IMG/VR virus record: IMGVR_UViG_3300044475_000063
Location: 32,001-96,000 of that record
Origin: a virus
DNA: 64,000 nt
Strand: one strand, 5' to 3'
The notes below the pieces were generated by a model that made no database searches, was not told where the DNA came from, and saw only the letters and a program-made list of their open reading frames with translations. The position numbers and the translations under genes are program-made. Below are positions 3,844 through 62,185 of the stretch, in pieces (the first letter of the stretch is position 1; the number at the start of each line of letters is the position of its first letter).

Positions 3844-3851
3844 AAAACCTC

Positions 3852-3880: not shown

Positions 3881-3905
3881 TCTAACTGTCAACGCCTGCC
3901 AGCGA

Positions 3906-5433: not shown

Positions 5434-5434
5434 T

Positions 5435-6067: not shown

Positions 6068-6079
6068 AAGGAGAAGGAA

Positions 6080-6701: not shown

Positions 6702-6713
6702 AGGAGAATCACA

Positions 6714-7435: not shown

Positions 7436-7854
7436 AGGTTAAATCTTCCCGATTAATGGGTGTTAATGATATCGACGATTTGTTCAAGGCCAAGGCGCGC
7501 TTGATGCCTGATGATGTGAGCGAGATTCAGCTTAGGGTGCTTCTGGCGCTCGATTCGGCCAAGCGCTCACGCTGCCCACCAGGCCTCGCAAACCTGCTTA
7601 TCAAGCACATGGTCATGGCTGCTGCAATCGGTAGCCAGATGCGAGACCAAAGCTTCTACAATCTGGCGCAAAGGGCCTATGAGGCGCTTTACAACGCTTG
7701 CATGCGAGATACGGTGGACCTTGATCTAACAACCGGCGAGTACAGCGTAATCAAGCGAACGATTGCGCTATACTTGAACCATCTGCCTAAAGTCGAGCGC
7801 GGCTTGTTTGAGTTTGCAAGCAATCATGCTCAGAAAGTTTTAGCGCAAGGTTAA
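7432..7854 (+). CDS. conserved hypothetical protein, last early-right gene (possible late regulator, by position only)
   Basis: Homolog of 57342-57764. Both copies precede the tRNA/packaging region. Confidence 0.6.
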   Translation: MKVKSSRLMGVNDIDDLFKAKARLMPDDVSEIQLRVLLALDSAKRSRCPPGLANLLIKHMVMAAAIGSQMRDQSFYNLAQRAYEALYNACMRDTVDLDLTTGEYSVIKRTIALYLNHLPKVERGLFEFASNHAQKVLAQG

Positions 7855-7856
7855 AA

Positions 7857-7890
7857 ATAGCGGCTAATTTAATAATTAGCCGCTATTTTT
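7857..7890. terminator. bidirectional terminator hairpin
   Basis: 13-bp stem ATAGCGGCTAATT/AATTAGCCGCTAT flanked by A-run and T-run, between convergent genes. Confidence 0.75.
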
Positions 7891-8400
7891 CTATATTTCT
7901 ATATCAGCCCAGCTTTTCCCAAGTTTTATCATGCTTACGGTCGAATGGTGAACATTGAAGAGTTTTCCTAGCTCTTTGTTCGACATTCTAATCATAGAGG
8001 CTAGCTTTATATATCTAGCCTCTTCTTTGGTTAAGATTGATCTAGGATTCAACTCGCCAAAAATAGGTCGGCATGGCGATCTGCCTTTTGAAACCATATC
8101 ATTTGAATTGTCTTGTGCAGTACCAAGAAAAAGATGATTTGGGTTGGTACAGATAGGGTTATCACATTTATGGCATACCATAAAATCACCCGGCTCTATA
8201 CCAAAATGCAAAGCATAAGAAATTCTATGCGCGAATACAGATTGTCCGCGCTTGCCAACATGGGCAAGCCTCGCGTATCCCTTTTTGTCTACGAAACCAT
8301 TCCAAGACCAGCAATTGTCTTGCTTGACAACCTTTGACAGGTATCTCTGTTCTATTTTTGACAGAGGATCATTGATAAGAGGTAAAATAAGAATAGCCAT
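7891..8400 (-). CDS. HNH homing-type endonuclease with C-terminal HTH
   Basis: CWxW...GYAR...HR..Y...CHKCDNP.C.NP.HL..GT...N motif. GGAG RBS before the ATG at 8400 (ORF-track start 8448). AT-rich. Absent from copy B. Confidence 0.8.
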   Translation of the reverse strand: MAILILPLINDPLSKIEQRYLSKVVKQDNCWSWNGFVDKKGYARLAHVGKRGQSVFAHRISYALHFGIEPGDFMVCHKCDNPICTNPNHLFLGTAQDNSNDMVSKGRSPCRPIFGELNPRSILTKEEARYIKLASMIRMSNKELGKLFNVHHSTVSMIKLGKSWADIEI

Positions 8401-8493
8401 GAAGACTCCATGAAAGTCATTTGTGGTTAAAAGCCAACACGTGTGCAACCACTGTTGGCTTTGTCATTCTAACTCAGATACAATGAATTTGTC

Positions 8494-8569
8494 GCGGGGA
8501 TAGCTCAGTTGGTAGAGTCTCTGATTTCCAATCAGATTGTCGTCGGTTCAAGCCCGATTCCCCGCTCCA
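8494..8569 (+). tRNA. tRNA-Gly (anticodon UCC)
   Basis: 76 nt hand-folded cloverleaf: 7-bp acceptor, GCTC/GAGT D-stem, TCTGA/TCAGA anticodon stem, loop TTTCCAA, T-loop TTCAAGC, encoded CCA. Confidence 0.85.
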
Positions 8570-8574
8570 AGAAT

Positions 8575-8708
8575 TAGCGAAGGCAGATAGCCATGAACAA
8601 AAGCGCGTGCGCAAGTAGTCATGCTGGCATACTGGAAGTAGCTAAAGCAAAGCCGCTAATGCGTTATTAGGAATTGCGCCACACAGTTCGGAAACTGCGG
8701 CATGTGGC
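8575..8708 (+). ncRNA. conserved structured RNA module M1 (unknown class)
   Basis: No ORF. Nucleotide-level conservation with 58540-58672. Helix GCCACA/TGTGGC encloses hairpin CAGTT-CGGA-AACTG. Confidence 0.4.
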
Positions 8709-8718
8709 AAGAATAGTT

Positions 8719-9001
8719 GGTCCGATACCGCAGGGGCGCTCGGGACAATAAACGCCCCAGCATAAGCGCCGCCCTCCTTTCCCCAGCTATCGCTAGTGGG
8801 CGCAACAAGTAATTAGGCGTGATTATGCAGAGCCAAGTACAAGGGCGCAGAGCGTGGAAGCCGCTAGTTGTTTGTCTCGCAAGAGACGCCACATAAAACC
8901 AGCCCGTGACGCCCTATTGCAGGGCATATGAGCGAACGAAGTAAGGGCGGCAGTCTTTGCATCTTAGTAGGCCAAGGAAACGTTGGTTGGTTTTATGTGG
9001 T
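8719..9001 (+). ncRNA. conserved structured RNA module M2 (unknown class)
   Basis: 5' two-thirds conserved with 59160-59330. 3' closing helix GCCACATAAAACCA/TGGTTTTATGTGGT corresponds to a different but still complementary helix in copy B. Confidence 0.45.
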
Positions 9002-9086
9002 GCAATGCTCGGGGATTTTTTTGTCTATTGCCTATCTAGAGTAGAATGTCAAGACAGAATTCACCATCACAGATTCAAGGCAAAAC

Positions 9087-9509
9087 ATGGCACTTACTCC
9101 AAAGCAAGCACTATTCGTCAAAGAATACCTAATCGACCTGAATGCAACTCAGGCCGCGATTCGTGCTGGTTATTCGGAAAAGACGGCTTACTCTATTGGT
9201 GAAGAAAACCTGAAGAAGCCTGAAATTGCAGAGGCGATTGCCGAGCATCAACAGGCCAAGGCAAAGAAGCTAGATATCACTGTTGATACGATACTTGCGG
9301 AGCTTGAGGAAGCGCGTCAATTGGCTCTAGAAACTGGTAAGGCTGGCCCAGCAGTTCAGGCTTCGATGGGTAAGGCAAAGATTTTAGGTTTGGAAAAGCA
9401 AGTCATCGATCATACATCTAGCGATGGCACTATGACGCCTAAAGCGCCTATCGTTGTTGACAAGGATACTGCTGCGCAGGTGGCGGCGAATATCAATGGT
9501 GGCATCTGA
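9087..9509 (+). CDS. terS: terminase small subunit (Terminase_2/P27-like)
   Basis: LTPKQALFVKEYLIDLNATQAAIRAGYSEKTAYSIGEENLKKPEI signature. Immediately upstream of TerL. Confidence 0.85.
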   Translation: MALTPKQALFVKEYLIDLNATQAAIRAGYSEKTAYSIGEENLKKPEIAEAIAEHQQAKAKKLDITVDTILAELEEARQLALETGKAGPAVQASMGKAKILGLEKQVIDHTSSDGTMTPKAPIVVDKDTAAQVAANINGGI

Positions 9510-10926
9510 CGACCCAGAGGTAATCAAGGCAGTAACTCGCGCACTATGCCTTGAGGATCACCTATTCTTTACTCGCTACTTCTTTAAGCTGCGCGAGGGG
9601 ATTAAATTCCGCGTCAACTGGCACCATAAGCGCATGGCTGAGGCTATCCAGCGCGTGATTGATGGGCATTGCAAGCGGCTAATCATCAATGTGCCTCCTG
9701 GCTCGTCTAAGACGGAAATGGCGGTTATTAACCTGATTGCGCGTGGGCTTGCGATTAATCCTCGTGCGCGCTTCCTGCACCTATCGTACTCTGCTGACCT
9801 TGCCGAACTGAATAGCGCCAAGGCAAAGGAGCTAATCACGTCCAGCGAGTATCAAGAGTTATTCACGATCCCGATTAAGACCGACTCCAAGGCGCGGGGC
9901 CGCTGGAACGTGGTTGATGAAAAAGGCGTGTCTATCGGCGGATGCTATGCGACCTCGACGCTTGGTCAGGTAACTGGCTTTCGTGCCGGTCACATGGCTG
10001 ATGGGTTTCAGGGCGCGATCATCATCGATGATCCATTAAAGCCTGTAGACAGCCTATCAAAGACCAAGCGCGATGCAGTCAACAATGCCTTTATCAATAC
10101 CGTGCAGAGCCGCAAGGCATCGCCTGATACTCCTATCATCGTCATCATGCAACGCCTCGCAGACGAGGATTTAACGGGCTTCCTGTTGAATGGCGGCGAC
10201 GGCAAAGAGTGGGAGCATGTTTGCATCCCAGCTATTGACGACGATTCCGGCAAGAGCTATTGGCCTGAGAAAGAGCCTATCGAATCGCTCTTGCAACTTA
10301 AGGAAAAGGGTAACTTCACCTTTGAGGGGCAGTACCAGCAGCGACCATATGTGCTAGGTGGTGAAATTATCAGGGGCGAATGGTTCGGGCGCTATAGCGA
10401 ACTGCCGCCGCAGAAATGGTGTGTGCAGCGCGCCGTATTCGCTGATACAGCCATGAAAACAGGCGAGCAGAACGACTACACGGTATTTATTGATGCCGCG
10501 CTCTATACCGATGGCAAGGTACGTATCCTTAACCTATGGCGCAAGAAAGTGAATGCCGTGGGCCTTCTTCAATTAGCCAAAGAGGTTTGGGCCTCGACAG
10601 AAGGGCTAGCTAGCGCCATGTACATTGAAGACAAGGCATCTGGCACCGGCCTAATCCAGCAGCTACAGGAAAACGACGTATTTATCCCGGTTATCCCAAT
10701 CGAGCGCACCAAAGACAAGCTAACCCGCGTCATGGAAGTGCAGCCAAGGATTCAGGCTGGCGGCGTTTTGCTGCCTACCTATGCGCCTTGGGTAACTGAG
10801 TTCATTAGCGAATGTGAGGCATTCACTGCAAACGATAGCCATAAACACGATGACCAAGTAGACCCGCTTGTAGATGCTGTAAATACGTTCATGGCTAACA
10901 GTTTCAACCTATCAGCCTTGGTTTAG
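9496..10926 (+). CDS. terL: terminase large subunit
   Basis: Walker-A-like VPPGSSKTE, IIIDDP Walker B, C-terminal nuclease region. Start at MVASDD overlapping the terS end. Unrelated to the copy B TerL. Confidence 0.85.
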   Translation: MVASDDPEVIKAVTRALCLEDHLFFTRYFFKLREGIKFRVNWHHKRMAEAIQRVIDGHCKRLIINVPPGSSKTEMAVINLIARGLAINPRARFLHLSYSADLAELNSAKAKELITSSEYQELFTIPIKTDSKARGRWNVVDEKGVSIGGCYATSTLGQVTGFRAGHMADGFQGAIIIDDPLKPVDSLSKTKRDAVNNAFINTVQSRKASPDTPIIVIMQRLADEDLTGFLLNGGDGKEWEHVCIPAIDDDSGKSYWPEKEPIESLLQLKEKGNFTFEGQYQQRPYVLGGEIIRGEWFGRYSELPPQKWCVQRAVFADTAMKTGEQNDYTVFIDAALYTDGKVRILNLWRKKVNAVGLLQLAKEVWASTEGLASAMYIEDKASGTGLIQQLQENDVFIPVIPIERTKDKLTRVMEVQPRIQAGGVLLPTYAPWVTEFISECEAFTANDSHKHDDQVDPLVDAVNTFMANSFNLSALV

Positions 10927-10945
10927 ATAAGAGAACATAAATAAA

Positions 10946-10963
10946 AACCCGCCGAAGCGGGTT
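10946..10963 (-). terminator. terminator of the reverse-strand cassette
   Basis: AACCCGC-CGAA-GCGGGTT hairpin. The T-run (TTTTTATTT) follows only on the minus strand. Confidence 0.65.
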
Positions 10964-10970
10964 GATTATG

Positions 10971-11345
10971 TTAGCCGTCGCCGGAGCCGTAGCCGTAGCC
11001 GGAGCCGTAGCCGTAGCCGGAGCCGGAGCCGTAGCCGTAGCCGGAGCCGGAGCCGTAGCTGTCGCCGGAGCCGTCGCCGTAGCCGGAGCCGTAGCCGGAG
11101 CCGTCGCCGGAGCCGGAGCCGTAGCCGTAGCCGGAGCCGGAGCCGTAGCTGTCGCCGGAGCCGTCGCCGTAGCCGGAGCCGTAGCCGGAGCCGTCGCCGG
11201 AGCCGTAGCCGGAGCCGTAGCCGGAGCCGGAGCCGTAGCTGTCGCCGGAGCCGTCGCCGGAGCCGTCGCCGGAGCCGTCGCCGGAGCCGTCGCCGGAGCC
11301 GTAGCCGTAGCCGGAGCCGTCAGTAAAAGTTTTATTGGTAGCCAT
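10971..11345 (-). CDS. (Gly-X)n repeat protein, X = Ser/Tyr/Asp (124 aa)
   Basis: MATNKTFTD then 115 aa with Gly at nearly every second position (57 of 115; the few exceptions are DSY motifs). AAGGA RBS 8 nt before the ATG. Overlaps the upstream gene end. Terminator downstream. Confidence 0.55.
   Translation of the reverse strand: MATNKTFTDGSGYGYGSGDGSGDGSGDGSGDGSGDSYGSGSGYGSGYGSGDGSGYGSGYGDGSGDSYGSGSGYGYGSGSGDGSGYGSGYGDGSGDSYGSGSGYGYGSGSGYGYGSGYGYGSGDG
10974..11318. repeat. hexanucleotide tandem array (GCC-GNN)n, 345 nt, with ~90-nt higher-order repeats
   Basis: Direct reading: gccgga/gccgta/gccgtc/gctgtc units without interruption. Open on both strands. Confidence 0.95.
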
Positions 11346-11706
11346 CAATGCTGTCCTTTGCAGCTTGGGTAGCTGGGATCAGTTCGCAGATGCCAGTCAG
11401 ATAAATTTCTGGGTTGACCACATCGACTTTCCCGCCGTCTTTTTTAAGGCCGTGTTGAGCAACGCCCGATAGCGCAACGCCGTCTTTAGCTTTCCACGAC
11501 CACAGGCGGCGCGAGTTTTTCAGAACTGCGGTATCGCCGTCAACGCTTACGACTTCGCCAGCATGCACACCAGCGGCATAGCAGCGTGCGATTACGTACT
11601 TGCCAACGAATGGATGAGGTAATACGGCTTGATATACTTGAGCCGACGCGCCAAACAAGGCGGCAAGTTCTTTAGCTTGGCCGATGGTGAGTTCGTTAAT
11701 GTTCAA
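11332..11706 (-). CDS. hypothetical protein (124 aa), partner of the repeat gene
   Basis: Reverse-strand ORF with aggagaag RBS. The RRLWSW motif is reminiscent of a phage DUF family. Absent from copy B. Confidence 0.6.
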   Translation of the reverse strand: MNINELTIGQAKELAALFGASAQVYQAVLPHPFVGKYVIARCYAAGVHAGEVVSVDGDTAVLKNSRRLWSWKAKDGVALSGVAQHGLKKDGGKVDVVNPEIYLTGICELIPATQAAKDSIDGYQ

Positions 11707-11841
11707 TTTACTTCTCCTATGGTTTTGCCTTTCGGCGTTGTGCTACGGATGACTAATGATAACTAAGGTTTCTCTATCTGTATATTTGAAATAAACTATA
11801 AAATACTAGAGTAAAATAGAGAAATACTATGAGGGGTTAAG

Positions 11842-13197
11842 ATGGGCCGACCATTGGGAAGTAAGAACAAGCCGAAAGAGCCGCAGCAGAATGTAGTTGT
11901 GACGGACGGGTACGCTGAGGCATTTACGGGAGCAGGAACAAATCGGGACCGTAGCAGCTACACGCGCATCGGGCGCACCGCCATGCTGCAACAGATGGAA
12001 TGTTCGCTACTGTACTTGGGTGATGGCTTTGCGCGCAAGATTGTGGACGTTCCAGCAGAGGAAATGACGCGCTCGGGCCTTGAGCTTGAGGATTTAGAGG
12101 ACGAGGAACTAGAGCAATTCGTCATGGCGCGTCTTGATGATCTGGACGCCATGCGGCACTTTAACGATGCGGTGGCGTGGTCTAGGTTGCACGGCGGCGC
12201 TGTGATGATCTTCGGCCTGAATGATGGCGGCACGCTTGATGTGCCTCTTAATCCCGAAGGGATCAAGAGCGTTGAATTTCTCCGAGTCTATGACCGCTGG
12301 CAAGCGACTATCCAGACCCGCGTGACCGATCCGAACAGCCCGGACTACGGCAAGCCGGACATCTGGCTCATTTCGCCGCTTGATGGTGCGCAACCGTACA
12401 AAGTGCATAACTCGCGCCTTTGGATGTTCGACGGCGACCGCATTCCAGACTTTGACCGCAATGCCAATCTCGGCTGGGGCGCATCGGCCCTGCAAGCCTG
12501 CCAAGATCAGCTTAAGCGCCTCGGCATGGGCCACCAATGGACGCTGGCGATTCTTGAGAGGGCGCAACAGGCAGTTCATAAGATTCCACGCCTCGGCCAA
12601 ACGCTGCAATCCCCAGGCGGCGAAGCAATGGTACGCAAGCGCGTGGACGTTGTAGACATGGTGCGCGGCATCCTGAATACGATTGTTGTAGACGGAGAAG
12701 AGGATTACCAAGTAACAACAGCTACGCTAACCGGCTATACGGACGTGCTAGACCGCTTTGCAGAGGCTTTGGCTGCTACTAGTGGCATCCCAGTATTTAA
12801 GCTGATGGAGCGCACGCAAGGGGGGTTGAGCAATACCGACAAGGGCGCTAGCGATGCTTGGTATGCTCGCATTGAGTCATGGTGGAATAATCTGCTTCGT
12901 AAGCCTCAAGACTTGCTAATCCAGTACATCATGATTTCTAAGAACGGCGAAGCGCCAGATTACAAGCTGTGCATGGCCCCGCTGTCGGTACTGAGCGCGA
13001 CTGAGCAAGCAGAGGTTGATTTGAAGAAAGCACAGGCATTGCAGGCTCGTGCAGATGCAGCTATTAAATTCATGACTGGTGGTGTTCTTGCGGCGGATGA
13101 TGTACGCCCTTCTATCGCGGAAGAATATGGTCTGAAAGAAGATAGCCAAGCGCCGGGGATTATTGAACCAGATGACGGCATGACAGAAAATGGCTAA
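11842..13197 (+). CDS. portal protein (DUF1073/HI1409-like)
   Basis: 451 aa after the terminase. Near-identical core to 62234-63592. Confidence 0.85.
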   Translation: MGRPLGSKNKPKEPQQNVVVTDGYAEAFTGAGTNRDRSSYTRIGRTAMLQQMECSLLYLGDGFARKIVDVPAEEMTRSGLELEDLEDEELEQFVMARLDDLDAMRHFNDAVAWSRLHGGAVMIFGLNDGGTLDVPLNPEGIKSVEFLRVYDRWQATIQTRVTDPNSPDYGKPDIWLISPLDGAQPYKVHNSRLWMFDGDRIPDFDRNANLGWGASALQACQDQLKRLGMGHQWTLAILERAQQAVHKIPRLGQTLQSPGGEAMVRKRVDVVDMVRGILNTIVVDGEEDYQVTTATLTGYTDVLDRFAEALAATSGIPVFKLMERTQGGLSNTDKGASDAWYARIESWWNNLLRKPQDLLIQYIMISKNGEAPDYKLCMAPLSVLSATEQAEVDLKKAQALQARADAAIKFMTGGVLAADDVRPSIAEEYGLKEDSQAPGIIEPDDGMTENG

Positions 13198-14203
13198 ACA
13201 ATGGTTATATCCTCATGCTCAAGAGAGGCAACTTGATAAAGCGATGCAGGCTTATGCACGTCAGGTGATGGCTGACGTTGATGCTGTTATAGTATCCAAC
13301 ATGGGTTACTTCATGTCGAAGGCTAAGCTTGATGCTGAATCTAGCGAAGAACCAGAAGAACAGGAGTCCTGGAGTGAAGAGCTAGCACTTTTAGTGGCTA
13401 TTCTTTTGACGCGATCTGCTAGCTATGATTTCTCAGCAATCTACACTGCTGGTAGAAACATTGCCGCATTTAATGATTATCAATTCAAATCAGTAATTAA
13501 TTCTGTATTAAACGTTGTTCCGCGAATAGCAGAGCCTTTTTTAAACGGAATTCTTTCTGATTGGTATAAAAAAACCACGGATTTAGTTAAAGACAAAGCT
13601 TCTGAATACATAAAGTCAGTAGAGGCAATTATTAGAAATCAGTCGGCAATTGAATCAACTCAAAAAGCAGCAAAAGAAGTAATAGCAAAGAGAAAAGAAG
13701 TTTTCTCAGGCAAAATGACATTCACTGCTATTAATGAAACAGGGATGCTGAACTCAATGCTGCAACGTAGCCGCTTGATGGCAATTGGAGCGCTGTCGTA
13801 CATCTGGACTACTCAACGGGACGAGCGAGTTAGGCCGCTTCACCAGCAAAGGCAAGGTAAGATGTTTTCATGGACTGTTCCTCCATCAGATGGGCATCCA
13901 GGTATGCCGATTCGTTGCCGATGCATCGCTACGCCAGTAATTGATTTCGATTTTGAAGGACAATTCCCAACTGATCCAGCAAAAGTTTTTGAGCTTCGGC
14001 AATATCGACGTGGAGTTTCAGAAAATCAGCGCCTAGAAAGAAATAAAGATTATGGCGCAGCATTTAGAAGTGGGAAATTGACGCCCGGGGAAATTATTTC
14101 TCTTAACAGAGATAAGACCTCTGCACGATCTGTTGTAAACTCCTTATTGACAAGCGGGCGACTCACCCAATCCCAACTAAACAATCTCTACAAGGATTTG
14201 TGA
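13190..14203 (+). CDS. head morphogenesis protein (Mu F / SPP1 gp7-like)
   Basis: RDERVRPLHQQRQGKMFSW...GHPGMPIRCRCIA motif. Follows the portal. Confidence 0.8.
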   Translation: MAKQWLYPHAQERQLDKAMQAYARQVMADVDAVIVSNMGYFMSKAKLDAESSEEPEEQESWSEELALLVAILLTRSASYDFSAIYTAGRNIAAFNDYQFKSVINSVLNVVPRIAEPFLNGILSDWYKKTTDLVKDKASEYIKSVEAIIRNQSAIESTQKAAKEVIAKRKEVFSGKMTFTAINETGMLNSMLQRSRLMAIGALSYIWTTQRDERVRPLHQQRQGKMFSWTVPPSDGHPGMPIRCRCIATPVIDFDFEGQFPTDPAKVFELRQYRRGVSENQRLERNKDYGAAFRSGKLTPGEIISLNRDKTSARSVVNSLLTSGRLTQSQLNNLYKDL

Positions 14204-14685
14204 TGGCTACTAGAGATAGAGACATGGGCTTAAAAAAAATACTGAATGGTATGCGTGTGCTGAAGCGTAAATCAATCACTATCGGCCTTCACGAAGATTT
14301 AGGAATTCATCCCGGAGAGCATAATTCAGAAGGTCTTACTCATGCTCAGATCGGGGCTATACAGGAGTTTGGCGCTACGAGGACATTCTTGGACGGACAT
14401 ACGATGGAGATTCCGTCTCGCCCATTCACAAGAGATTCTTTCGATAGAAACCTAGAAAATATATGGCGAGACATACAGAGGTCATTTGAGGCAGCAAAAC
14501 CAACTGGAAATTTTATACAAGCAATGTTTGATGTTGGCAAGCGTCATGCAGAATACCAGCGGAAAGTAATGGATGCTTGGTCTGATCCGCCAAATTCTGC
14601 GCGGACTATCAAGTACAAAAAGAAAAATGATCCGCTTGATTGGACTGGTGCAATGATCCATGCAGTAAAGGCAAAAATAGAATGA
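14200..14685 (+). CDS. HK97 gp10-like protein (first copy, tentative)
   Basis: IGAIQEFGAT...IPSRPF resembles the NEFGT...IPERSF motif of 22166-22624. Confidence 0.5.
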   Translation: MMATRDRDMGLKKILNGMRVLKRKSITIGLHEDLGIHPGEHNSEGLTHAQIGAIQEFGATRTFLDGHTMEIPSRPFTRDSFDRNLENIWRDIQRSFEAAKPTGNFIQAMFDVGKRHAEYQRKVMDAWSDPPNSARTIKYKKKNDPLDWTGAMIHAVKAKIE

Positions 14686-14888
14686 ATTGCGAAAAAGGAG
14701 ATATTGCTATAGTTACAGCAATCGGAGAATTGGAAGGCAAGGTAGTTATCCTTACTGATCTTATAAAAACCGAAAAGGGGTATGCTTGGAGATATGAGCC
14801 TCCCTTGCTAAAGCTTAAAAATGGCAACGAACAATCTAGCTTATTTGATAGCGCTTTAATGCCTGTAGAAATGAAATTTTCCAATTAG
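14682..14888 (+). CDS. hypothetical protein (68 aa)
   Basis: ATGA overlap with the previous gene. AT-rich. Confidence 0.45.
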   Translation: MNCEKGDIAIVTAIGELEGKVVILTDLIKTEKGYAWRYEPPLLKLKNGNEQSSLFDSALMPVEMKFSN

Positions 14889-14930
14889 GGCACTTCGATA
14901 GGCTATGATCGCCTTTGCAGAGTGGGCAGG

Positions 14931-15128
14931 TCATAACTTCACCACTTCTTCAAGATGAATAGTGGCCTGGAATCGATTTGGAACAAGCGCAGAAAAATAT
15001 GATGAATGCTCTTCAAACCTGATTTCCTTAATCATGTATGTTACGCCAACAATATCAATTAAGCCATTTGAATCGTAGACTTTTTTGTACGCCTCAAAGG
15101 TTTTGCGGTTGTTTGTGGTAATCATCAC
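14931..15128 (-). CDS. hypothetical protein (65 aa), last gene of the reverse-strand island
   Basis: Start overlaps the stop of 15125-15463. Confidence 0.5.
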   Translation of the reverse strand: MMITTNNRKTFEAYKKVYDSNGLIDIVGVTYMIKEIRFEEHSSYFSALVPNRFQATIHLEEVVKL

Positions 15129-15463
15129 GCTTCCCCAAAAAGGGCAGCGACCAGCGGGTCACGTTGCACACGCTCAGGAAGCAACTCACCCTGAACATTG
15201 CGCGGCTTCTTAAAGGTGTAGAACTGCACTTTTTGGCTATCGTCGCCAAGAATTCTCTTCTCGCCTTTAAAAATCCCCTCGGCTTGATAAAGACCACGGA
15301 ACAAGCTCGTGGCCTCCTGAATGCTCAAGCCTAGCTCTTTGGCTACATACTGTGGACAGCTTTCGCCGTCGCGCTCTATGATTTCCTCAACCTCGGCCAT
15401 GAGTTCTAACCGTGACTTCTTCGTAGCCGCCTGCAAAAACTTGATAGTGAGCGATTTAAGCAT
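15125..15463 (-). CDS. hypothetical protein (112 aa)
   Basis: Reverse-strand operon member. Confidence 0.55.
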   Translation of the reverse strand: MLKSLTIKFLQAATKKSRLELMAEVEEIIERDGESCPQYVAKELGLSIQEATSLFRGLYQAEGIFKGEKRILGDDSQKVQFYTFKKPRNVQGELLPERVQRDPLVAALFGEA

Positions 15464-15502
15464 TTTAAGTTCCGATGGTTGATTTGCATTAATCTATCAC
15501 AA

Positions 15503-15649
15503 TCAATGCTGGACTTTTTGAAAGCATTTCTTAGGGCCTTCCCAACTGCCGCCAGATTTTGAGCAATTAGCAATTTCCTTTTCGTTGGCAAGAAATACAA
15601 AGCTCAAGAACGCAACAAAGCATAGAATTGACAGAAAGAGGCGCATCAT
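15503..15649 (-). CDS. small secreted/membrane-anchored Cys-containing protein (48 aa)
   Basis: MMRLFLSILCFVAFLSFVFLA signal-like N-terminus. ATGA overlap with the upstream stop. Below the ORF-track cutoff. Confidence 0.45.
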   Translation of the reverse strand: MMRLFLSILCFVAFLSFVFLANEKEIANCSKSGGSWEGPKKCFQKVQH

Positions 15650-16104
15650 TCCTCCGTGTTGATTGGTTCTTGGCTTAGACCGCGCCAGAAAAGAAGATCA
15701 CTTTTCCACCAAGCATGTTTGCCCATAGACGATGCGCTATTCACATCATAAGCACCATACATGAAAGCAGCTCCATCCCAATAGCGATAGAACTCCTCGC
15801 CGCGATCTACAGTTGCTAGATACACCCCTTTTTTATTCCGATCAGGAAGCTCATTTACTCCATATCGCCAATCAGTTAGAGGAATCGCCGCATTGATTTC
15901 GTCCGCTACTTCGGAGAAGGATTTGACCTTAATTCCACTCATGCGAAGATTAAATGGCCCGTCAACGAAATAGACATAACCACGGCTTGAAATCATGCCG
16001 ATGTTGAATAATCCGCCATTGCGCAGCCCATAGAACTTAGCAATCCTCTCAGCGAAGCGAGTTTTGCCGTTGGGAACGCCGTATATGATTAGGGATGGTT
16101 TCAT
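15646..16104 (-). CDS. hypothetical protein with N-terminal Walker-A-like GVPNGKT
   Basis: MKPSLIIYGVPNGKTRF. ATGA overlap with the lipoprotein gene stop. Confidence 0.55.
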   Translation of the reverse strand: MKPSLIIYGVPNGKTRFAERIAKFYGLRNGGLFNIGMISSRGYVYFVDGPFNLRMSGIKVKSFSEVADEINAAIPLTDWRYGVNELPDRNKKGVYLATVDRGEEFYRYWDGAAFMYGAYDVNSASSMGKHAWWKSDLLFWRGLSQEPINTEE

Positions 16105-16373
16105 TTGCACACCTGTTTTCCATTGTTGTCCATGCGAGGCGTAATTGCTGCGCCTCGGTTATAAGCGCCGTCCCAGCCAAGATAGTGACAGCCGGTGCGC
16201 GCATCAATTAGAACCCACATACCGCTGCGCCCATTTGGTGGGTCTGAGTCATCGCGTACAGTGTTGTCATAGGGCTTCGCTTCGGCTTTTATTGGGGCGA
16301 TTTTAGGCTCACATTGAGGCGAGCCAGAGCAGCCAGATAAAAGAACAAACAAAACACCAAAGAAGATTTTCAT
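16101..16373 (-). CDS. lipoprotein (90 aa)
   Basis: Signal peptide with lipobox LLSGC. Confidence 0.65.
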   Translation of the reverse strand: MKIFFGVLFVLLSGCSGSPQCEPKIAPIKAEAKPYDNTVRDDSDPPNGRSGMWVLIDARTGCHYLGWDGAYNRGAAITPRMDNNGKQVCK

Positions 16374-16618
16374 TTCTCGCGCTCCTTAAGCATGGCATCG
16401 GCAATTAAGAAAGCTTGCTTAGCCGCAAAATCATAAACATCAACAAGATAGTTATCCCCTGGCCGTGTTAAATCGACATTGAGCCACGCTTGCATCGCCT
16501 TTGCCGCGAAGTAGTCACGGATCGAAAGGCCGGGGAATTGCCAAGTATTAGGGCCGTCTTGATGCCCCTCTACGCCAGAAGTAGAAACTGGGAATGCTGG
16601 CTCACTAACTTTGCTCAT
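16370..16618 (-). CDS. hypothetical protein (82 aa)
   Basis: Overlapping start/stop with neighbours. Confidence 0.55.
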   Translation of the reverse strand: MSKVSEPAFPVSTSGVEGHQDGPNTWQFPGLSIRDYFAAKAMQAWLNVDLTRPGDNYLVDVYDFAAKQAFLIADAMLKEREK

Positions 16619-16986
16619 TCCTTCTCTCCCGGCAGCACTACGTCTCCGTCTTGGATGGCGCGGCGGATGGCGGCGTTGGCGATTGTTCGCTTAGAGAACA
16701 AAGCTGCTGAATCGCTTACTGCGTCCAATTCCTCATTGGTCATGCGAGTCTCTGGAGACTTAGGTTCTGGCTTGATGCGGAACGTGCCATGCAGAGGAAA
16801 ATTCCAATCATCATCCTCCATATCCTTAAAGAAAGCTTTGCCATCTGCAACACCAGCGAATCGTTGCACAACTTCTCCGTTTGCCTTGGCAATAATGAAT
16901 TCTGCTAGTTTGTGAGGTTTTTTCATTTGCATTCCTTTGAAGTATATTTCAGAGCGAATTTCTGCCATAAAGTCTACGGCGCTCAT
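16615..16986 (-). CDS. hypothetical protein (123 aa)
   Basis: ATGA overlap with the upstream gene. Alternative internal start at 16926. Confidence 0.55.
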   Translation of the reverse strand: MSAVDFMAEIRSEIYFKGMQMKKPHKLAEFIIAKANGEVVQRFAGVADGKAFFKDMEDDDWNFPLHGTFRIKPEPKSPETRMTNEELDAVSDSAALFSKRTIANAAIRRAIQDGDVVLPGEKE

Positions 16987-17201
16987 TTTGAAAGTTCCCA
17001 GCCTTCCTCTTGAAGCTTTTCAGCATAGAGGCGGTTAATCGAGAACATGTAGTAGAAATTGGCGAAACCGAACGTAAAGAACGAGATAGCCGCTTGAGGC
17101 CACATGCCACGGCTGATGAAAACGAGGAAGCCGAAGAAGAAAGTAGTCCAGCTAAAGCCCTCGGGGACGTGGCGGGTGATGTTGTTGCGGGTTGCGATCA
17201 T
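16983..17201 (-). CDS. two-pass membrane protein (72 aa)
   Basis: Two hydrophobic segments: WTTFFFGFLVFI and AAISFFTFGFANFYYMF. Confidence 0.6.
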   Translation of the reverse strand: MIATRNNITRHVPEGFSWTTFFFGFLVFISRGMWPQAAISFFTFGFANFYYMFSINRLYAEKLQEEGWELSK

Positions 17202-17335
17202 TACATTTCCTTTGGGTGGACTCGTTCGGTTTTAATGAAAAGTGGGATAAAACCAAATAGACACACTTTGGTTGTACGATGAAGTTTTTCATTTTGTGGG
17301 CCAGATAGGTGATAGCTCACATCAAAAGTAATCAT
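17201..17335 (-). CDS. small hypothetical protein (44 aa), first gene of the island
   Basis: TAATG overlap with the next gene. Below the ORF-track cutoff. Confidence 0.35.
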   Translation of the reverse strand: MITFDVSYHLSGPQNEKLHRTTKVCLFGFIPLFIKTERVHPKEM

Positions 17336-17438
17336 TTAAATCTCCTATAAATTATTCAGTAACAACATCATGCCTTAGATGGTTGCGCGTTACCAATAGA
17401 TTTTTTCTATTGAATTTGGATTGTGATATTATTCCGCT

Positions 17439-18530
17439 ATGGCTACCTATCAAAGATACGACCGCGCCGAATTTAAGGCAACCAAGACTGACGAGGGCTT
17501 TCTAGTCGATAGCCCTATCGTCGGTCGAGTCGGCATTCAAGAGTATCGCCGCGCTGATGGCACGATGCGACGTGAGTTGCGCTTGCCTGAGAATGTATTC
17601 CATGCCGATGCGCTGGCTTCAATGCGCGGCAAGCCGATTACTAGCGGCCATCCGGGCTCGGGAAAAGTTACTGCGGCTGATTCTCACCGCGTGACTATTG
17701 GAACGATCCTGAGTGAAGGTCGTCAAGATGGCGATAATATGCGCACCGACATTGTTATCCATAATGTGGCGGCAATGGGGAAGAATAAAGAGCTTTCCCT
17801 AGGATATACGTGCCATATGGACGAAACGCCCGGTGTGCATCCGGTGTATGGCCCTTACGACGCTATTCAAGGCGTCCCAATTACCAATCATTTATCCGTT
17901 GTCCCCGTTGCTCGCGCTGGCGCAATCGCCCGCTTGAACTTGGATAGCATGGATCAGGAAGATTTTTCAACCCAGCAGGAGCAACAAACTATGAGCATGG
18001 TCAAAGTACGACTTGACAGCGGCTTAGAGTATGAATGCGCTCCCGAAGTCTCGGTGGCGCTCGACAAGCTGCGCTCCGATGCTGCGGAAGCTGCAACCAA
18101 ACTCGCGGCCATTCCAACCCTGACGGCAGAGCGCGATACGCTGAAAGCGCGTGTTGACGGCTTTGCGGCAGAACTGACTAAGGCTAAAGACGAAGGCAAG
18201 GCCGCTGGCCGCGCCGAAGTTGAAGCTAAGGCCAAGCTGGATGCGGTTGCTACTGCATTCAAGATCGACGCTAAAGACATGACTGAGCGCCAAGTCAAGG
18301 AAGCGGTTATCAAAGCCGTTACCCCAGCGCTGGTTCTGGATGGCAAAGACGATGCCTATATCGATGTTGCCTTCGCAATGGCCCAAGAGTTCAAAGGCGA
18401 TGCAGCCATGGCAGATCAGCGCCAGAAAGCGCAACATCGCAACGACGGAGGCGATAACAAAGCCCAAGGCAGCATGTCGGCGCGTGACAAAATGATTGCT
18501 CGTATGAGCGGTAAGAAGGAGGACAAATAA
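17439..18530 (+). CDS. prohead scaffold/protease-like protein (DUF2213-like)
   Basis: N-terminal GIQEYRRADG...GKPITSGHP pattern. Ala/Lys/Glu-rich coiled-coil C-terminus. Sits upstream of the capsid gene. Confidence 0.65.
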   Translation: MATYQRYDRAEFKATKTDEGFLVDSPIVGRVGIQEYRRADGTMRRELRLPENVFHADALASMRGKPITSGHPGSGKVTAADSHRVTIGTILSEGRQDGDNMRTDIVIHNVAAMGKNKELSLGYTCHMDETPGVHPVYGPYDAIQGVPITNHLSVVPVARAGAIARLNLDSMDQEDFSTQQEQQTMSMVKVRLDSGLEYECAPEVSVALDKLRSDAAEAATKLAAIPTLTAERDTLKARVDGFAAELTKAKDEGKAAGRAEVEAKAKLDAVATAFKIDAKDMTERQVKEAVIKAVTPALVLDGKDDAYIDVAFAMAQEFKGDAAMADQRQKAQHRNDGGDNKAQGSMSARDKMIARMSGKKEDK

Positions 18531-57341: not shown

Positions 57342-57764
57342 GTGGCAACAAAATCATCCCGCCTAATGGGCGCAAAAGGCTTGTACGAGGTGCTGGTTGC
57401 CAAGTCTAGGCTTGAGCCAGAAGATGTGCGCGAGATTCAGCTACGGGTGCTTTTAGCGCTTGATTCGGCAAAGCGCTCGCGCTGCCCACCGGGCCTAGCA
57501 AACCTGCTAATCCGCCACATGATTATGGCAGCAGCAATCGGAAGCCAGATGCGCGATCAGTCGTTCTACAAGCTGGCGCAACGGGCCTATGCAGAGCTTT
57601 ACAAGGCCAGCATGAGAGACACGCAAGACCTAGACCTGACAACCGGCGAGTACAGCGTAATCAAGCGCACAATCGCGCTTTACCTTAACCACTTGCCAAA
57701 CGTAGAGCGCGGCTTGTTTGAGTTTGCAAGTAATCATGCGCAGAAAGTTTTGGCGCAAGGTTGA
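57342..57764 (+). CDS. conserved hypothetical protein (possible late regulator, by position only)
   Basis: GTG start after aggagg. Homolog of 7432-7854. Confidence 0.6.
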   Translation: MATKSSRLMGAKGLYEVLVAKSRLEPEDVREIQLRVLLALDSAKRSRCPPGLANLLIRHMIMAAAIGSQMRDQSFYKLAQRAYAELYKASMRDTQDLDLTTGEYSVIKRTIALYLNHLPNVERGLFEFASNHAQKVLAQG

Positions 57765-57782
57765 AATTATTTGGAGATAATT

Positions 57783-57983
57783 ATGACGTATGAACGTTAC
57801 AAAGTATTAAATGGATCGCAGAGCAAACATTGTTGTTTTGAGGCCACTGTGATTGATACAAATAAGCCAGTAATGTTGCGCGGAGAGAAAATGAGTTGGT
57901 TTCATACCGTAGCTGAATGTTTCGAGTTGGAAGATGCTATGTTAATTTGCGCCGCGCTCAACGCTAAGGAGAAAAAACCATGA
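57783..57983 (+). CDS. hypothetical protein (66 aa)
   Basis: ATG at 57783 (ORF-track start 57771). Confidence 0.45.
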   Translation: MTYERYKVLNGSQSKHCCFEATVIDTNKPVMLRGEKMSWFHTVAECFELEDAMLICAALNAKEKKP

Positions 57984-58234
57984 TGCGAATTAAACTATTC
58001 GGCCTGTTTATCGCCTTCGCCCTGCTGGCGCTGGTGCGCCCGCGCAAGTGCCTGAAACTGTTGGAGGCGGCTGACCGTGGCGTTAAAGCGGCGCACGAGG
58101 CAGAGCTATACCGCCAAATGAACATGCTAGTACAGCGTGCTGAAGAAGTGCCAGCAGCTACGGTAACGGCGGAAGATGCTATGCTAAACGGAGCGCAAAT
58201 AACTGGAATGATTCGGCGTTGCACGGCTATGTAA
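57980..58234 (+). CDS. signal-anchored small protein (84 aa)
   Basis: MMRIKLFGLFIAFALLALV N-terminus. Confidence 0.5.
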   Translation: MMRIKLFGLFIAFALLALVRPRKCLKLLEAADRGVKAAHEAELYRQMNMLVQRAEEVPAATVTAEDAMLNGAQITGMIRRCTAM

Positions 58235-58376
58235 AATTAAGTGTTGTATTTTTGCACTAGCGTTGACTTTGAATAATGGTTAAGGCATCATTACTACATC
58301 GAGCACCACTTTCCAGATAGGACTGGGTTCAAGCAACTTCCGCGCTGGCGAAGTGAAAGGCCAGCAAAAGATCAAA

Positions 58377-58452
58377 GCGCCGTTGGCAGACAGGATGATG
58401 CACCGGAATTCTAGTCCGACGTAAGGGAGTTCGAATCTCTCACGGCGCGCCA
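58377..58452 (+). tRNA. tRNA-Arg (anticodon UCU)
   Basis: 76 nt hand fold: perfect 7-bp acceptor, loop ATTCTAG (U33, UCU, A37), T-loop TTCGAAT, encoded CCA. C27-A43 and G13-A22 mismatches. Confidence 0.8.
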
Positions 58453-58460
58453 GTTTCAAA

Positions 58461-58534
58461 GCGGGTATAGCTGATTGGCACAGCAGAAGCCTTCCAAGCT
58501 TACGACTCGGGTTCGATTCCCGATATCCGCTCCA
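58461..58534 (+). tRNA. tRNA-Gly (anticodon UCC)
   Basis: 74 nt hand fold: acceptor GCGGGTA/TATCCGC, D-stem GCTG/CAGC, loop CTTCCAA, T-arm TCGGG-TTCGATT-CCCGA, CCA. Confidence 0.8.
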
Positions 58535-58539
58535 AGAAT

Positions 58540-58672
58540 TAGCGAAGGCAGATAGCCATGAATGAAAGCGCATGCGCAAGTAGTCATGCTGGCATACTGG
58601 AAGTAGCTAAAGCAAAGCCGCTGATGCGTTATGAGGAATTGCGCCACACAGTTCAAAACTGCGGCATGTGGT
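58540..58672 (+). ncRNA. structured RNA module M1 (copy B)
   Basis: Conserved with 8575-8708. The hairpin loop changes (CGGA to CAAA) while the stems are kept. Confidence 0.4.
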
Positions 58673-58680
58673 AAGATTAT

Positions 58681-58909
58681 GGGCCTGTGGCTGAGAGGAA
58701 AAGCACTCCTAATAATGGAAGGAGACAGGTAAAACTGATTTTCAAGTCGAAAGTTTTGCATGGTACACGGTTTGCAGAAGCACCTATAGCGGCCTGATTC
58801 AGGTGGCGGTTAAACAGCAAGGGAAGCGCGTTTCCAAGCTATGCAAAAGCTAGTAGTAATGCACTAGTACATGAAAATTACATGGGTTCAATTCCCATCA
58901 GGTCCACCA
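58681..58909 (+). ncRNA. tRNA-like RNA with ~150-nt insertion at the variable-arm position
   Basis: Acceptor GGGCCTG/CAGGTCC + A + CCA, D-arm GCT-GAGAGGAAA-AGC, stem CTCCT/AGGAG with 9-nt loop AATAATGGA, T-arm ATGGG-TTCAATT-CCCAT. 229 nt in total. Confidence 0.45.
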
Positions 58910-59150
58910 GTTGCAAGAATAGTAGTTGTAAGAGCCAATGCGAGACCCTGCGCGATCAACCTGCCCGGAGCAGGTTCCGTAAGGAAGGGGTGGCAGACCG
59001 GAAAGACGGTCACTGAATAGCAGTAGTGACGAGAGGACGTGGCAACCGCACGTTTGGCGAAGTTTGCTAATTCGGGACAGGCAACTGAAACATTGGAGTC
59101 ATGACCAATGGAACCAAGAGCTAAAACCTGATTACGTGGTTGACTAATTT
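58910..59150 (+). ncRNA. structured RNA module M3 (copy B only)
   Basis: No ORF. Local hairpins CCTGC-CCGGA-GCAGG, TTCC-GTAA-GGAA, GACCG-GAAAGA-CGGTC, GTCACT-N10-AGTGAC, CGTG-N7-CACG. Confidence 0.35.
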
Positions 59151-59159
59151 TGAATAGTT

Positions 59160-59428
59160 GGGCCGATACCGCAGGGGCGCTCGGGCCAATAAACGCCCCA
59201 GCATAAGCGCCGTCCTCCTTTCCCCAGCTATCGCTAGTGGGCGCAACAAGTAATTAGGCGTGATTATGCAGAGCCAAGTTAAGGGCGCATAGCGTGGAAG
59301 CCGCTAGTAGTTTTGTCTCGCAAGAGACGCCACAAGAAAGCCGATTTGTGAGATACGTGGTATATCAGCGCCCTCATAAGATGAAGTCCCTTGGTTCGAT
59401 TCCGAGGACAAGTCGGCCTCCTTGTGGC
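59160..59428 (+). ncRNA. structured RNA module M2 (copy B) with a tRNA-sized minihelix at its 3' end
   Basis: 5' part conserved with 8719-8890. Helix 59329-59344/59413-59428 encloses 59340-59417, which has a 10-bp acceptor-like stem stacked on T-arm CCTTGG-TTCGATT-CCGAGG. Confidence 0.45.
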
Positions 59429-59460
59429 CCCTACTATAAAACTGTAGGAATATAGATGGT

Positions 59461-59974
59461 GCATAATTCAATTGACGAATTGAATGTATGCCGAATGGTT
59501 CACGAAACGAGCCATTACATATCATCGGCAGCACGGAAGGACGTGGGTAAGCGCTGCAAATAGTCGGCAGAGAGATTGCGGCAATCCTAGGTGATTTGCT
59601 CTCATCATGCCAAGTTAGGTATCAAGCCCTAGCCCGATGATCTGTAATAAAGATTGGATGATGCCGGTCGTTACACGCCTGACTCTCGTTATAGAGTCAC
59701 TACACGCATGCTGATTGATAGGGATGGATACGTAGAACTGGACGCAGGGGCTATCCATAGAGTCTAGGCCTTGACCTAGAGCGCAAACTCCCCTAACTAC
59801 GATATTAGTCAGCAGTCGTGTGGTGCAATGCGGAGGCTGATCCGCGAAGCGTTCTATGAGTCCGATTGATTACCGGGATACTCGCAGGTTGGCTAGGCTT
59901 CGCGGGCCTAAACTTTAGCGCAGAATAATGCCAACAAAGCCAGAGTTCAGCACTGGCCACCACTTCAGTTTCAT
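59461..59974 (+). ncRNA. large structured RNA candidate P (unknown class), paralog of 47105-47685
   Basis: Helix 59521-59528/59634-59641. Blocks at 59527-59545, 59616-59636 and 59947-59963 are identical to blocks in the minus-strand copy. No ORF. Confidence 0.5.
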
Positions 59975-60052
59975 GCCAAGAGTAGCTCAACGGTTAGAGC
60001 GACGGATTAATAACCCGGATTATGCTGGTTCGATTCCAGCCTCGCGGCACCA
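59975..60052 (+). pseudogene. degenerate tRNA-like element ending in CCA
   Basis: D-arm GCTC-AACGGTTA-GAGC and T-arm GCTGG-TTCGATT-CCAGC are good. The acceptor has 2 mismatches and the anticodon stem has only 3 bp (loop TTAATAA). Confidence 0.4.
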
Positions 60053-60074
60053 GTTCTTTCCCGCAGCACCTTTC

Positions 60075-60102
60075 GCCCTGAATCCTATCAGGGCGTTTTT
60101 TT
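60075..60102 (+). terminator. rho-independent terminator closing the RNA island
   Basis: GCCCTGA-ATCCTA-TCAGGGC followed by GTTTTTTT. Confidence 0.8.
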
Positions 60103-60176
60103 GTCTAAAACGCCGCATTCAATTGCCGCATTAAGCCGCAAAAGCCGCACCATGCAAAATGCGCTAATATAGCGGC

Positions 60177-60755
60177 ATGGGACGAAAATCAGCACTCACG
60201 CCCGAGCAATGGGCAACCGTACAGCACCGCCATATCGTAGGCGGTGAATCTATTCGCATGCTTGCAAAAGAGTTCGGAGTCAACGAATCATCCATGCGCC
60301 GCAAGATCGGGCCTAAAGTGGTTGAGGCTGGCGAGACAGAGGACTTGCGAGAGCTAGCAGGGCGAAAAGCAAGAATCGACAGCGAGGCAAAGCGTATCAG
60401 CGCAGAGATTGAAGCGTTGCCGATTGCTAAGCAAATGATTGTTTCCGATCTGGCGCGTAAGCTGGGTGCGATCACAATGCACCTAAGCTCGTCAGGCGAA
60501 TATATGTCCTCATTGGTTCATCGCGTTACTGGTATTGCTTGCGGGCTATCCGAAAAGATTGATGACGCTGACCCAATGAAAAGCATTGACGTGCTTAAGC
60601 AAATTTCAAGCTTGGTTCACCTTGCTAACGAATCCTCGCAAATTCCTATGAACTTGATTAAGGCGAATAAGGAAACGATTGACGCTATGAGCGAAGCAGC
60701 AGAAGGCAATAGCTCGCGCCCAACAGCGCCGGTCTATCAGATCGTCCACGAATGA
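60177..60755 (+). CDS. terS: terminase small subunit (HTH type), unrelated to copy A TerS
   Basis: N-terminal HTH (ESIRMLAKEFGVNESSMRRKI), coiled-coil middle. Overlaps the TerL start. Confidence 0.65.
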   Translation: MGRKSALTPEQWATVQHRHIVGGESIRMLAKEFGVNESSMRRKIGPKVVEAGETEDLRELAGRKARIDSEAKRISAEIEALPIAKQMIVSDLARKLGAITMHLSSSGEYMSSLVHRVTGIACGLSEKIDDADPMKSIDVLKQISSLVHLANESSQIPMNLIKANKETIDAMSEAAEGNSSRPTAPVYQIVHE

Positions 60756-62185
60756 GCGCTATTGAGATTTTCCCGGCGTATGAGGAATATCTGCAGCCGG
60801 CTCGCTTCAAGGTTGCATACGGCGGGCGCGGATCGGCTAAAACGCGCACATTCGTAACCATTCTTCTAAGCAACGTCCTGCATTTTGGCTGGCGAGTTGT
60901 TGCTTTTAGGGAGTTAATGGAAAGCATCGAGGACTCAGTTTATCAAGAAGTGGTTGCAGAGATTACGCGCCGCGAGTGGGATAAATGGTTTGACGTGCTT
61001 AAGACAGAGATTCGCTGTCCTGTCAGCGGTGGTGTATTCAAGTTCTCAGGCATTAAATCGAGCGCTAAGCGCCTCAACAGCCAAAAGCTTAAGGGTTTCT
61101 CAGACTTTGATGCCGCATGGCTGGAGGAGGCCAATCCTGTGTCTGTCGAGTCATGGAATGCGCTCATTCCTACCATGCGTAAGCCGGGTTCAGAAATTTT
61201 CGTATCCTTTAACCCGGAAAACCCACTTGAGGAAACCTATAAGCGGTTTGTGACTGAGCGCAAATACCCTGATTACTTGGGTGGAAAGCGCTATTGCATA
61301 GTCAAAAAGCTGAATTACGATGCAAACCCGCGATTCCCTCAAGAGTTGCGCGACGACATGGAGTTAATGAAGGCGACGGACTTTGAAATGTACCGTCACG
61401 TCTATTTGGGTGAGCCTGTGAGCAATTCTGACTTGTCGATCATCAAGCCGATATGGATTGAAGCGGCAATGGATGCGCACCTGCACATTGCGGACTTCCC
61501 TATGGGAGGCGGCAAGATCGGCGGATTTGACGTATCTGGAGGCGTTGAGGGGGATATTGCAACACCCAAGGCAAACGATCCAAACGCCTTTGCATGGCGT
61601 CATGGCTGCATCCTGCAATCGCTTGAGGAATGGCATGACGAAGACCCTAATCGCGCCGCTGCGACGTGTTATGAGCATGCATATCGCTCTCAAGTGGACA
61701 CGCTCAATATTGACGATATTGGCGTTGGTGCCTCTGTTCCTGGCGAACTAAGGCGCTTGCAGGGCGAAGCCTATGCAAAGAGCGTTAAGATCAAGCAGAT
61801 CAATTTCCACGGCTGGACAGCATCCGAAGGACCGCAAGACCCTGATGCAGAGTACATGCCGGGTAAAACGAACTTTGATATGTTCGCCAACCTCAAGGCG
61901 CAGGGATGGGGAACGCTGGCAGATCGCTTTAGGGCAACTTGGCAAGCGCGTAACGGTCTGCCATACGACAAAGACAAGCTAATCAGCCTGCCTAGTGGTT
62001 TGTCTCTTGTTGACAAGCTTAAGGCAGAACTAGCCCAGCCGCGACGCGAGATTATCAATGGACGATTCAAGGTAGAAGGCAAGAAAAAGCTCAAAGAGCG
62101 CGGCATCCCATCGCACAACTTGGCCGATGCGGTTGTTATGGCATTTGCGCCGGGTGATAGCTTTGATCTATCAGCACTGATATGA
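60752..62185 (+). CDS. terL: terminase large subunit (PBSX/XtmB-like), unrelated to copy A TerL
   Basis: Walker A YGGRGSAKT near the N-terminus, DAAWLEEA Walker B. 477 aa directly upstream of the portal. Confidence 0.8.
   Translation: MSAIEIFPAYEEYLQPARFKVAYGGRGSAKTRTFVTILLSNVLHFGWRVVAFRELMESIEDSVYQEVVAEITRREWDKWFDVLKTEIRCPVSGGVFKFSGIKSSAKRLNSQKLKGFSDFDAAWLEEANPVSVESWNALIPTMRKPGSEIFVSFNPENPLEETYKRFVTERKYPDYLGGKRYCIVKKLNYDANPRFPQELRDDMELMKATDFEMYRHVYLGEPVSNSDLSIIKPIWIEAAMDAHLHIADFPMGGGKIGGFDVSGGVEGDIATPKANDPNAFAWRHGCILQSLEEWHDEDPNRAAATCYEHAYRSQVDTLNIDDIGVGASVPGELRRLQGEAYAKSVKIKQINFHGWTASEGPQDPDAEYMPGKTNFDMFANLKAQGWGTLADRFRATWQARNGLPYDKDKLISLPSGLSLVDKLKAELAQPRREIINGRFKVEGKKKLKERGIPSHNLADAVVMAFAPGDSFDLSALI

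Follow-up and report, generated by a model that had tools for sequence, protein, structure and literature searches.

The tRNA clusters of phages have long been known to hold small RNAs without an assigned role, RNA C and RNA D of phage T4 being examples. Another familiar element is the RNase III processing stalk, an irregular stem of about 20 bp formed by the sequences that flank a unit, as in the stems of rRNA operons and at the early RNA sites of phage T7. T4 RNA C and D, small RNAs in a phage tRNA cluster, are the published parallel to the locus described here (PMC3014915). GOLLD and ROOL are structured RNAs, often carried by prophages, that lie next to tRNAs and are possibly co-transcribed with them (PMC5737381).

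The module examined here, M2, has the features of the phage tRNA-cluster small stable RNAs, an expression used as the name of a kind and not of a homology family: it is non-coding and structured, and it lies in an ORF-free island on the strand of the tRNAs. M2 differs from T4 RNA C and D in being longer, with a defined five-helix domain and an exchangeable hairpin, and in occurring upstream of the terminase genes of mosaic phages of about 50 kb rather than in a T4-like phage; no sequence relation is expected. Compared with GOLLD and ROOL, it is far smaller, and its neighbors are shuffled cassettes instead of one conserved architecture. M2 is a previously undescribed RNA within a known kind of locus.

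The window, the whole stretch of 64,000 nucleotides that was analyzed, corresponds to bases 32001-96000 of an IMG/VR virus record that is 98,391 bases long and has a terminal repeat of 127 bases. Self-comparison resolves this record into two collinear mosaic units of about 49-50 kb each, of which about 21 kb per unit aligns with the other unit at 70-100% identity. Coding stretches are 79-93% identical between the units, the terminase types differ, and a related complete record (G001) measures 54.5 kb. Where an earlier note on this DNA spoke of two genome copies, the record is instead two different, related mosaic phage genomes of about 50 kb joined head to tail. It could be a true heterodimer or dimer, two prophages in tandem, or two strains joined during assembly. 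In the window, the units extend over about 1-18010 and 18011-64000. Another structured RNA of unit 1, at 4066-4186, matches the Rfam family Betaproteobacteria-1 (RF02932) above the cut-off with 57.2 bits, which gives a weak hint of a betaproteobacterial host.

The two M2 copies, A in the first unit and B in the second, occupy orthologous positions, and no other stretch longer than 150 nt is as well conserved between the units as M1 and M2. The earlier note estimated the identity of the 5′ domains at about 90%; the similarity is real and the figure was too low, as alignment of A 8711-8893 with B 59152-59334 gives 95.7% over 184 columns, with 98% in the first 128 nt. Every motif and position that the note quoted is present in the sequence. 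The features are collected in Table 1.

Table 1. Positions in the window of M2, its helices, the hairpins that follow it, and the elements of the two islands.
Feature	Position	Strand	Description
M2 5′ domain, copy A	8711-8887	+	95.7% identical to copy B; covariance model R1, 185 bits
M2 5′ domain, copy B	59152-59328	+	Covariance model R1, 189 bits
H1	59174-59179/59194-59199	+	Hairpin with conserved CAAUAA in the loop
H2	59201-59211/59257-59269	+	11-bp long-range helix enclosing a conserved C-rich internal loop and a variable inner hairpin (59222-59241)
H3	59273-59275/59284-59286	+	3-bp hairpin, 9-nt loop
H4	59291-59294/59302-59305	+	Hairpin, 7-nt loop
H5	59315-59328	+	5-bp hairpin with GNRA cap
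Type-2 long hairpin, copy A	8888-9001, flank 9002-9008	+	17 consecutive pairs, branched tip; z -4.6
Type-1 long hairpin, copy B	59329-59428	+	8 bp, 3x3 internal loop, 10 bp, tRNA-like apical insert; z -4.3
Degenerate tRNA-like element, copy B	59343-59415	+	CAU anticodon loop, weak anticodon stem, no encoded CCA; relaxed ARAGORN cloverleaf
Second unit in B	59680-59831	+	Small hairpin (59680-59699), type-2 long hairpin (59699-59824), conserved 3′ flank; z -3.1
Island A	about 7855-9086	+	Holds tRNA-Gly
Island B	about 58235-60176	+	Holds tRNA-Arg, tRNA-Gly, and tRNA-Ile
Promoter-like site	8455-8484		Island A
Promoter-like site	58263-58291	+	Before the tRNA-Arg/tRNA-Gly start of island B; weak, 9/12 matches in a consensus scan
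Intrinsic terminator	60074-60102	+	Closes island B, before the 192-aa ORF at 60177 and the large terminase subunit gene; terminator scan

Each M2 copy sits in an ORF-free + strand island between early-region genes and terminase genes. The islands, bracketed by promoter-like and terminator sites, also hold tRNAs of the same orientation. Two small possible ORFs separate a 140-aa gene from island B. The 192-aa ORF downstream of island B matches no family and is likely, from its position, to be the small terminase subunit. The island ends in two further loci, on contigs L006 and L008, hold GC-hairpin and T-run sequences equivalent to the island B terminator, of which island A keeps only the T-run half (9009-9024). 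Island A also lacks the tRNA-Arg, the tRNA-Ile, and several modules of island B, and it looks like a shortened island, a deletion derivative. The modules around M2 vary: it is preceded by M1 in A, by another module in B, by a tRNA-like RNA in L006, and by something else in L008. The tRNA-like gene of L006 (3022-3119, with a 21-nt insert; relaxed ARAGORN) has its 3′ end exactly at the start of M2. Also in island B, ARAGORN with introns allowed and a relaxed threshold draws a 229-nt tRNA-shaped gene at 58681-58909, interrupted at the anticodon loop by an insert of 132 nt and ending in an encoded CCA; a weak Rfam tmRNA match at 58790-58909 (25.6 bits) falls in this module, which is other than M2. 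We propose that M2 forms one cassette in a phage operon of tRNAs and non-coding RNAs, giving a + strand stable RNA that is processed together with the tRNAs, an interpretation that we hold to be somewhat probable.

Homologs of M2 are rare. Four exact or degenerate probes from different parts of the module were run against IMG/VR, with candidate matches checked by BLAST, and they returned only two true homologs beyond A and B, namely 3118-3298 of L006 and 4062-4238 of L008, at about 75-80% identity and on contigs of one metagenome; the remaining IMG/VR matches of these probes were chance matches. Metagenome contigs and 185,579 species genomes, searched with one probe each, likewise gave chance matches and no M2 homolog, and the INPHARED phage collection holds no BLAST match for M2 or its neighbors. 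The covariance model R1 finds exactly one M2 copy per genome of about 50 kb. Two relatives that have the upstream 140-aa gene were scanned with R1, and M2 is absent from both, so phages of this type can do without it. Searches of Rfam with E values up to 10 yield no family for the 5′ domain. A cmscan search, which the earlier note had proposed, thus leaves M2 without a family, and only the copy B insert scores, as a tRNA below the cut-off (16.6 bits). M2 is a real but rare RNA family of four copies, which matches no Rfam model and no phage record searched.

The fold of the 5′ domain was derived from RNAalifold and from pair counts on the four homologs. The domain spans about 170 nt of a folded RNA of about 180 bases, comprises five helices, and has a single-stranded lead in copy B. 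Across the four sequences, 98.5% of the pair cells hold standard pairs, and seven pairs are changed on both sides, a count to be read with the caveat that the sequences form two close pairs and hold few independent events. In a control with the partners slid by 1-3 columns, 33-47% of the cells pair, and zero to one pair shows changes on both sides. H4 is rewritten at three pairs in L008, and the GNRA loop varies from GCAA to GUAA. H2, the longest helix, is almost invariant and gives little evidence either way. A and B differ at 10 sites, two of them 1-nt indels, and every one of these sites is unpaired; with 66 of the 194 columns paired, the chance of this is about 0.016. The folding energy of the whole domain is mildly better than that of shuffled sequences (z of -1.8 and -1.2).

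The pairs also indicate the strand. The G.U pairs of M2 would become A.C mismatches on the opposite strand, and therefore the RNA would be read on the + strand, like the tRNAs. A protein-coding reading was rejected, as every reading frame is interrupted in at least one of the four sequences. Taken together, the substitutions establish the 5′ domain as a predicted RNA fold under selection on the + strand. The earlier note regarded M2 as a functional RNA and proposed a homolog alignment to score covariation; the alignment bears it out as a functional-looking structured RNA, through the covariation and the substitutions that avoid the helices.

The same comparison bears on the possibility that the region represents neutral debris left by a tRNA array in decay, with the similarity of the M2 copies arising from recent recombination between the two units. 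The tRNA-like insert of copy B is degenerate, island A is shortened and its terminator truncated, these phage genomes are mosaic, and some relatives are without M2, all of which would fit such decay. However, the homologs at 75-80% identity, on other metagenome contigs, retain all helices via compensatory changes, the 5′ domain gives no match to the tRNA model at E up to 10, and the A/B differences avoid the paired columns. We therefore regard decay as quite improbable.

The fold leaves several conserved segments unpaired: the C-rich internal loop CCCUCC, the hairpin loop CAAUAA, the 7-nt loop UGRAAGC, and the GNRA tetraloop. A pseudoknot between the C-rich loop and the cargo of the downstream hairpin gave marginal values (p = 0.024, 0.2, 0.07, and about 1) and was not adopted. 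The alternative pairing of 59160-59166 with 59413-59419, pointed out in the earlier note, is present in copy B and is conserved in none of the other three homologs; a conserved helix joining the 5′ and 3′ ends of M2 was not found. A terminator flagged after H4 in copy B by the terminator scan was dismissed, since its T-run is absent in L006. Two known RNA classes were also considered and rejected. In the case of Y RNA/YrlA, the Y-RNA-like heptamer at the 5′ end of copy A (8720-8726) is not conserved in B, L006, or L008, and there is no Rfam match; a TROVE (Ro60) domain is found in none of the three virus records, while control genomes do score. For tmRNA or permuted tmRNA, 59152-59428 gives no match to RF00023 or RF04321 at E up to 10, and the relaxed tmRNA mode of ARAGORN finds nothing.

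The position of M2 upstream of the terminase genes suggests further roles. M2 could be a cis-acting leader of the late (packaging) operon that controls terminator read-through or terminase translation, comparable to phage antitermination RNAs. In line with this, the island lies between early-region genes and terminase genes in A, B, and L008, the terminase of B, L006, and L008 has a terminator in front of it, and the CCCUCC loop resembles an anti-Shine-Dalgarno sequence. We nevertheless find this role unlikely: M2 lies 0.1 to 0.8 kb away from the terminator and the start of the terminase, with varying modules in between, other genes occupy about 4 kb ahead of the large terminase gene in L006, the downstream genes belong to different families, and no leader or antitermination family of Rfam matches.

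The variety of the downstream genes is also relevant to the idea that M2 acts as DNA, its inverted repeats serving as sites of recombination, packaging (cos/pac), or protein binding. The large terminase types beside M2 are PHROG 38 in A, PHROG 2 in B, and PHROG 31467/5653/2 in L008; the small ones are PHROG 51 in A and PHROG 1482 in L008, and the candidate in B has no family. M2 thus adjoins three large-subunit and two small-subunit types, and it is therefore not a packaging site. Its location just upstream of the terminase genes, and the conserved inverted-repeat arms that clearly take part in cassette exchange (see below), would be expected of a DNA site. In contrast, the strand-specific G.U pairs and the compensatory changes point to RNA, the GNRA and T-loop features are RNA motifs, and the same M2 stands beside different terminase families. 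A role as DNA is accordingly very improbable, and we return to M2 as a cassette of a tRNA/non-coding RNA operon.

In all four loci, H5 is abutted without a linker by a long hairpin that starts with GCYACA and ends with UGUGGY. Six such hairpins share the GCYACA/UGUGGY base, have stems of 17-20 bp, differ in their tips, and fold with z of -3.1 to -6.5 against dinucleotide shuffles. Alignment of arms and flanks divides them into two types. Type 2, with the 3′ flank UGCAAWGC, comprises the copy A hairpin, 4229-4314 of L008, and the second hairpins of B (59699-59824) and L006 (3626-3711); the flank of copy A at 9002-9008 is shared with B 59825-59831, L008, and L006. Type 1 is present only in B (59329-59428) and L006 (3291-3389), which share an 8-bp base and have distal helices of 10-11 bp that are wholly different in sequence. 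Beyond M2, the long hairpin recurs once or twice per island, each time after a small abutting hairpin. The second hairpins of B and L006 are again preceded by such a hairpin, in a pattern like that of H5, and the small hairpin with its long hairpin is thus a repeated building block.

The two types change how the copies should be compared. The earlier note reported a copy A pairing of 8888-8901 with 8988-9001, which exists and extends to 17 consecutive pairs, and a copy B helix of 59329-59344 with 59413-59428, which also exists. It further held that these closing helices covary between A and B. The alignment of arms and 3′ flanks indicates instead that the true ortholog of the copy A helix is B 59699-59824 and not 59329-59428, B and L006 carrying an extra unit between M2 and the type-2 hairpin. 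The two helices compared in the note are not orthologs, so they show no mutual covariation.

The note was right in that a long helix always follows M2 and that its inserts are exchangeable, as the type-2 hairpins at B 59699-59824 and L008 4229-4314 illustrate. These two are identical over 16 bases of the 5′ arm and over 27 bases that cover the 3′ arm and 3′ flank, while their interiors are unrelated and of unequal length. Cargo swapping between conserved arms is real, and it is whole-cassette exchange rather than stepwise compensatory mutation. Recombination within the conserved arms would be the simplest route for exchanging the tips. A stronger version of this idea is that the GCYACA/UGUGGY stem is a natural "cassette holder", a conserved stalk with the length of an RNase III stem for mounting, excising, and exchanging unrelated small RNAs, tRNA-like ones among them, with M2 as a dedicated platform domain that works together with the stalk cargo. 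We consider this version doubtful; if true, it would describe a modular RNA system in which function is swapped by recombination in the arms. M1 ends in a short hairpin (8678-8708 and 58643-58672) with a stalk-like base and almost no insert, which may be an "empty" version of the stalk.

Exchange of this kind also has to be set against the view that the whole island, of 1.2-2.4 kb, is one large ornate RNA in which M2 is a single domain. The region is long, ORF-free, dense in helices, and adjacent to tRNAs in a phage, which are properties of GOLLD and ROOL (PMC5737381), and the GNRA loop and the conserved unpaired segments could make tertiary contacts. However, the order of modules and the neighbors differ in every genome, no conserved long-range helix leads from M2 to the other modules, and the pairing of the C-rich loop with the cargo is marginal, as given above. 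Moreover, the GOLLD and ROOL covariance models have no match at E up to 10 in 57500-61500 or 7500-9600. A single ornate RNA therefore has only a slender chance of being correct.

The insert of the copy B hairpin was described in the earlier note as a 78-nt tRNA-sized element, a minihelix with a T-arm and no normal anticodon arm. The T-arm holds, with 6 bp and a canonical 7-nt T-loop, whereas the minihelix does not, as relaxed ARAGORN draws equivalents of both the D-arm and the anticodon arm. The resulting 73-nt cloverleaf resembles a tRNA (RF00005) in having a 4-bp D-stem, a D-arm with GG, and a 7-nt anticodon loop of the form Y-U-CAU-A-A. It departs from one in that only three of the five anticodon-stem pairs form, the acceptor stem has a G.G mismatch at its base, where it meets the T-arm, and the sequence lacks an encoded CCA. 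The leader and trailer of the insert pair and lengthen the acceptor helix, and the whole is buried in the 8-bp outer helix. The RF00005 score of 16.6 bits covers model positions 9-63 only and compares with a cut-off of 29 bits, and neither default ARAGORN nor Rfam at its gathering threshold calls the element. The insert is a degenerate or repurposed tRNA(CAU). No other IMG/VR copy of the 20-mer at the 3′ side of its T-arm and acceptor was found. None of the inserts of A, L006, and L008 resembles a tRNA over its whole length; that of L008 has a T-arm-like hairpin on its 5′ side.

For M2 as a cassette of a tRNA/non-coding RNA operon, we propose the following course of events. The island would be transcribed from its own promoter together with the tRNAs, in B up to the terminator that closes the island, and the transcript would be cut into stable small RNAs by the host enzymes that process tRNA and rRNA. 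The stems of about 20 bp could be RNase III-like processing stalks or protective 3′ hairpins. By analogy, the hairpins of the M2 islands resemble RNase III stalks in their stems of about 20 bp, their free interior, and their place in a putative polycistronic stable-RNA transcript, and all six have the stem length of such a stalk, about two helical turns built from flanking sequences. The conserved loops of M2 may bind a protein or RNA partner.

The locus adds a well-delimited RNA domain, supported by covariation, to the RNAs of phage tRNA clusters. Unrelated inserts between identical helix arms show that RNA cassettes are shuffled in phages at particular joints of the structure. Should the stems turn out to be processing stalks, each island would be an operon of small RNAs that can be exchanged, with M2 as a tractable member in which to look for a partner and a function. 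The weight of these points is modest, as the family is tiny, with four copies, and has no assigned function.

Two further features of the window deserve mention. The tRNA at 59975-60052 is called tRNA-Ile with anticodon AAU by ARAGORN and scores 47 bits with the Rfam tRNA model; for tRNA-Ile in bacteria, AAU is unusual, and GAU is the normal anticodon. At 10906-11373, between the terminase and portal genes, unit 1 alone has a dense tandem array whose periodicity is 12 and 18 nt.
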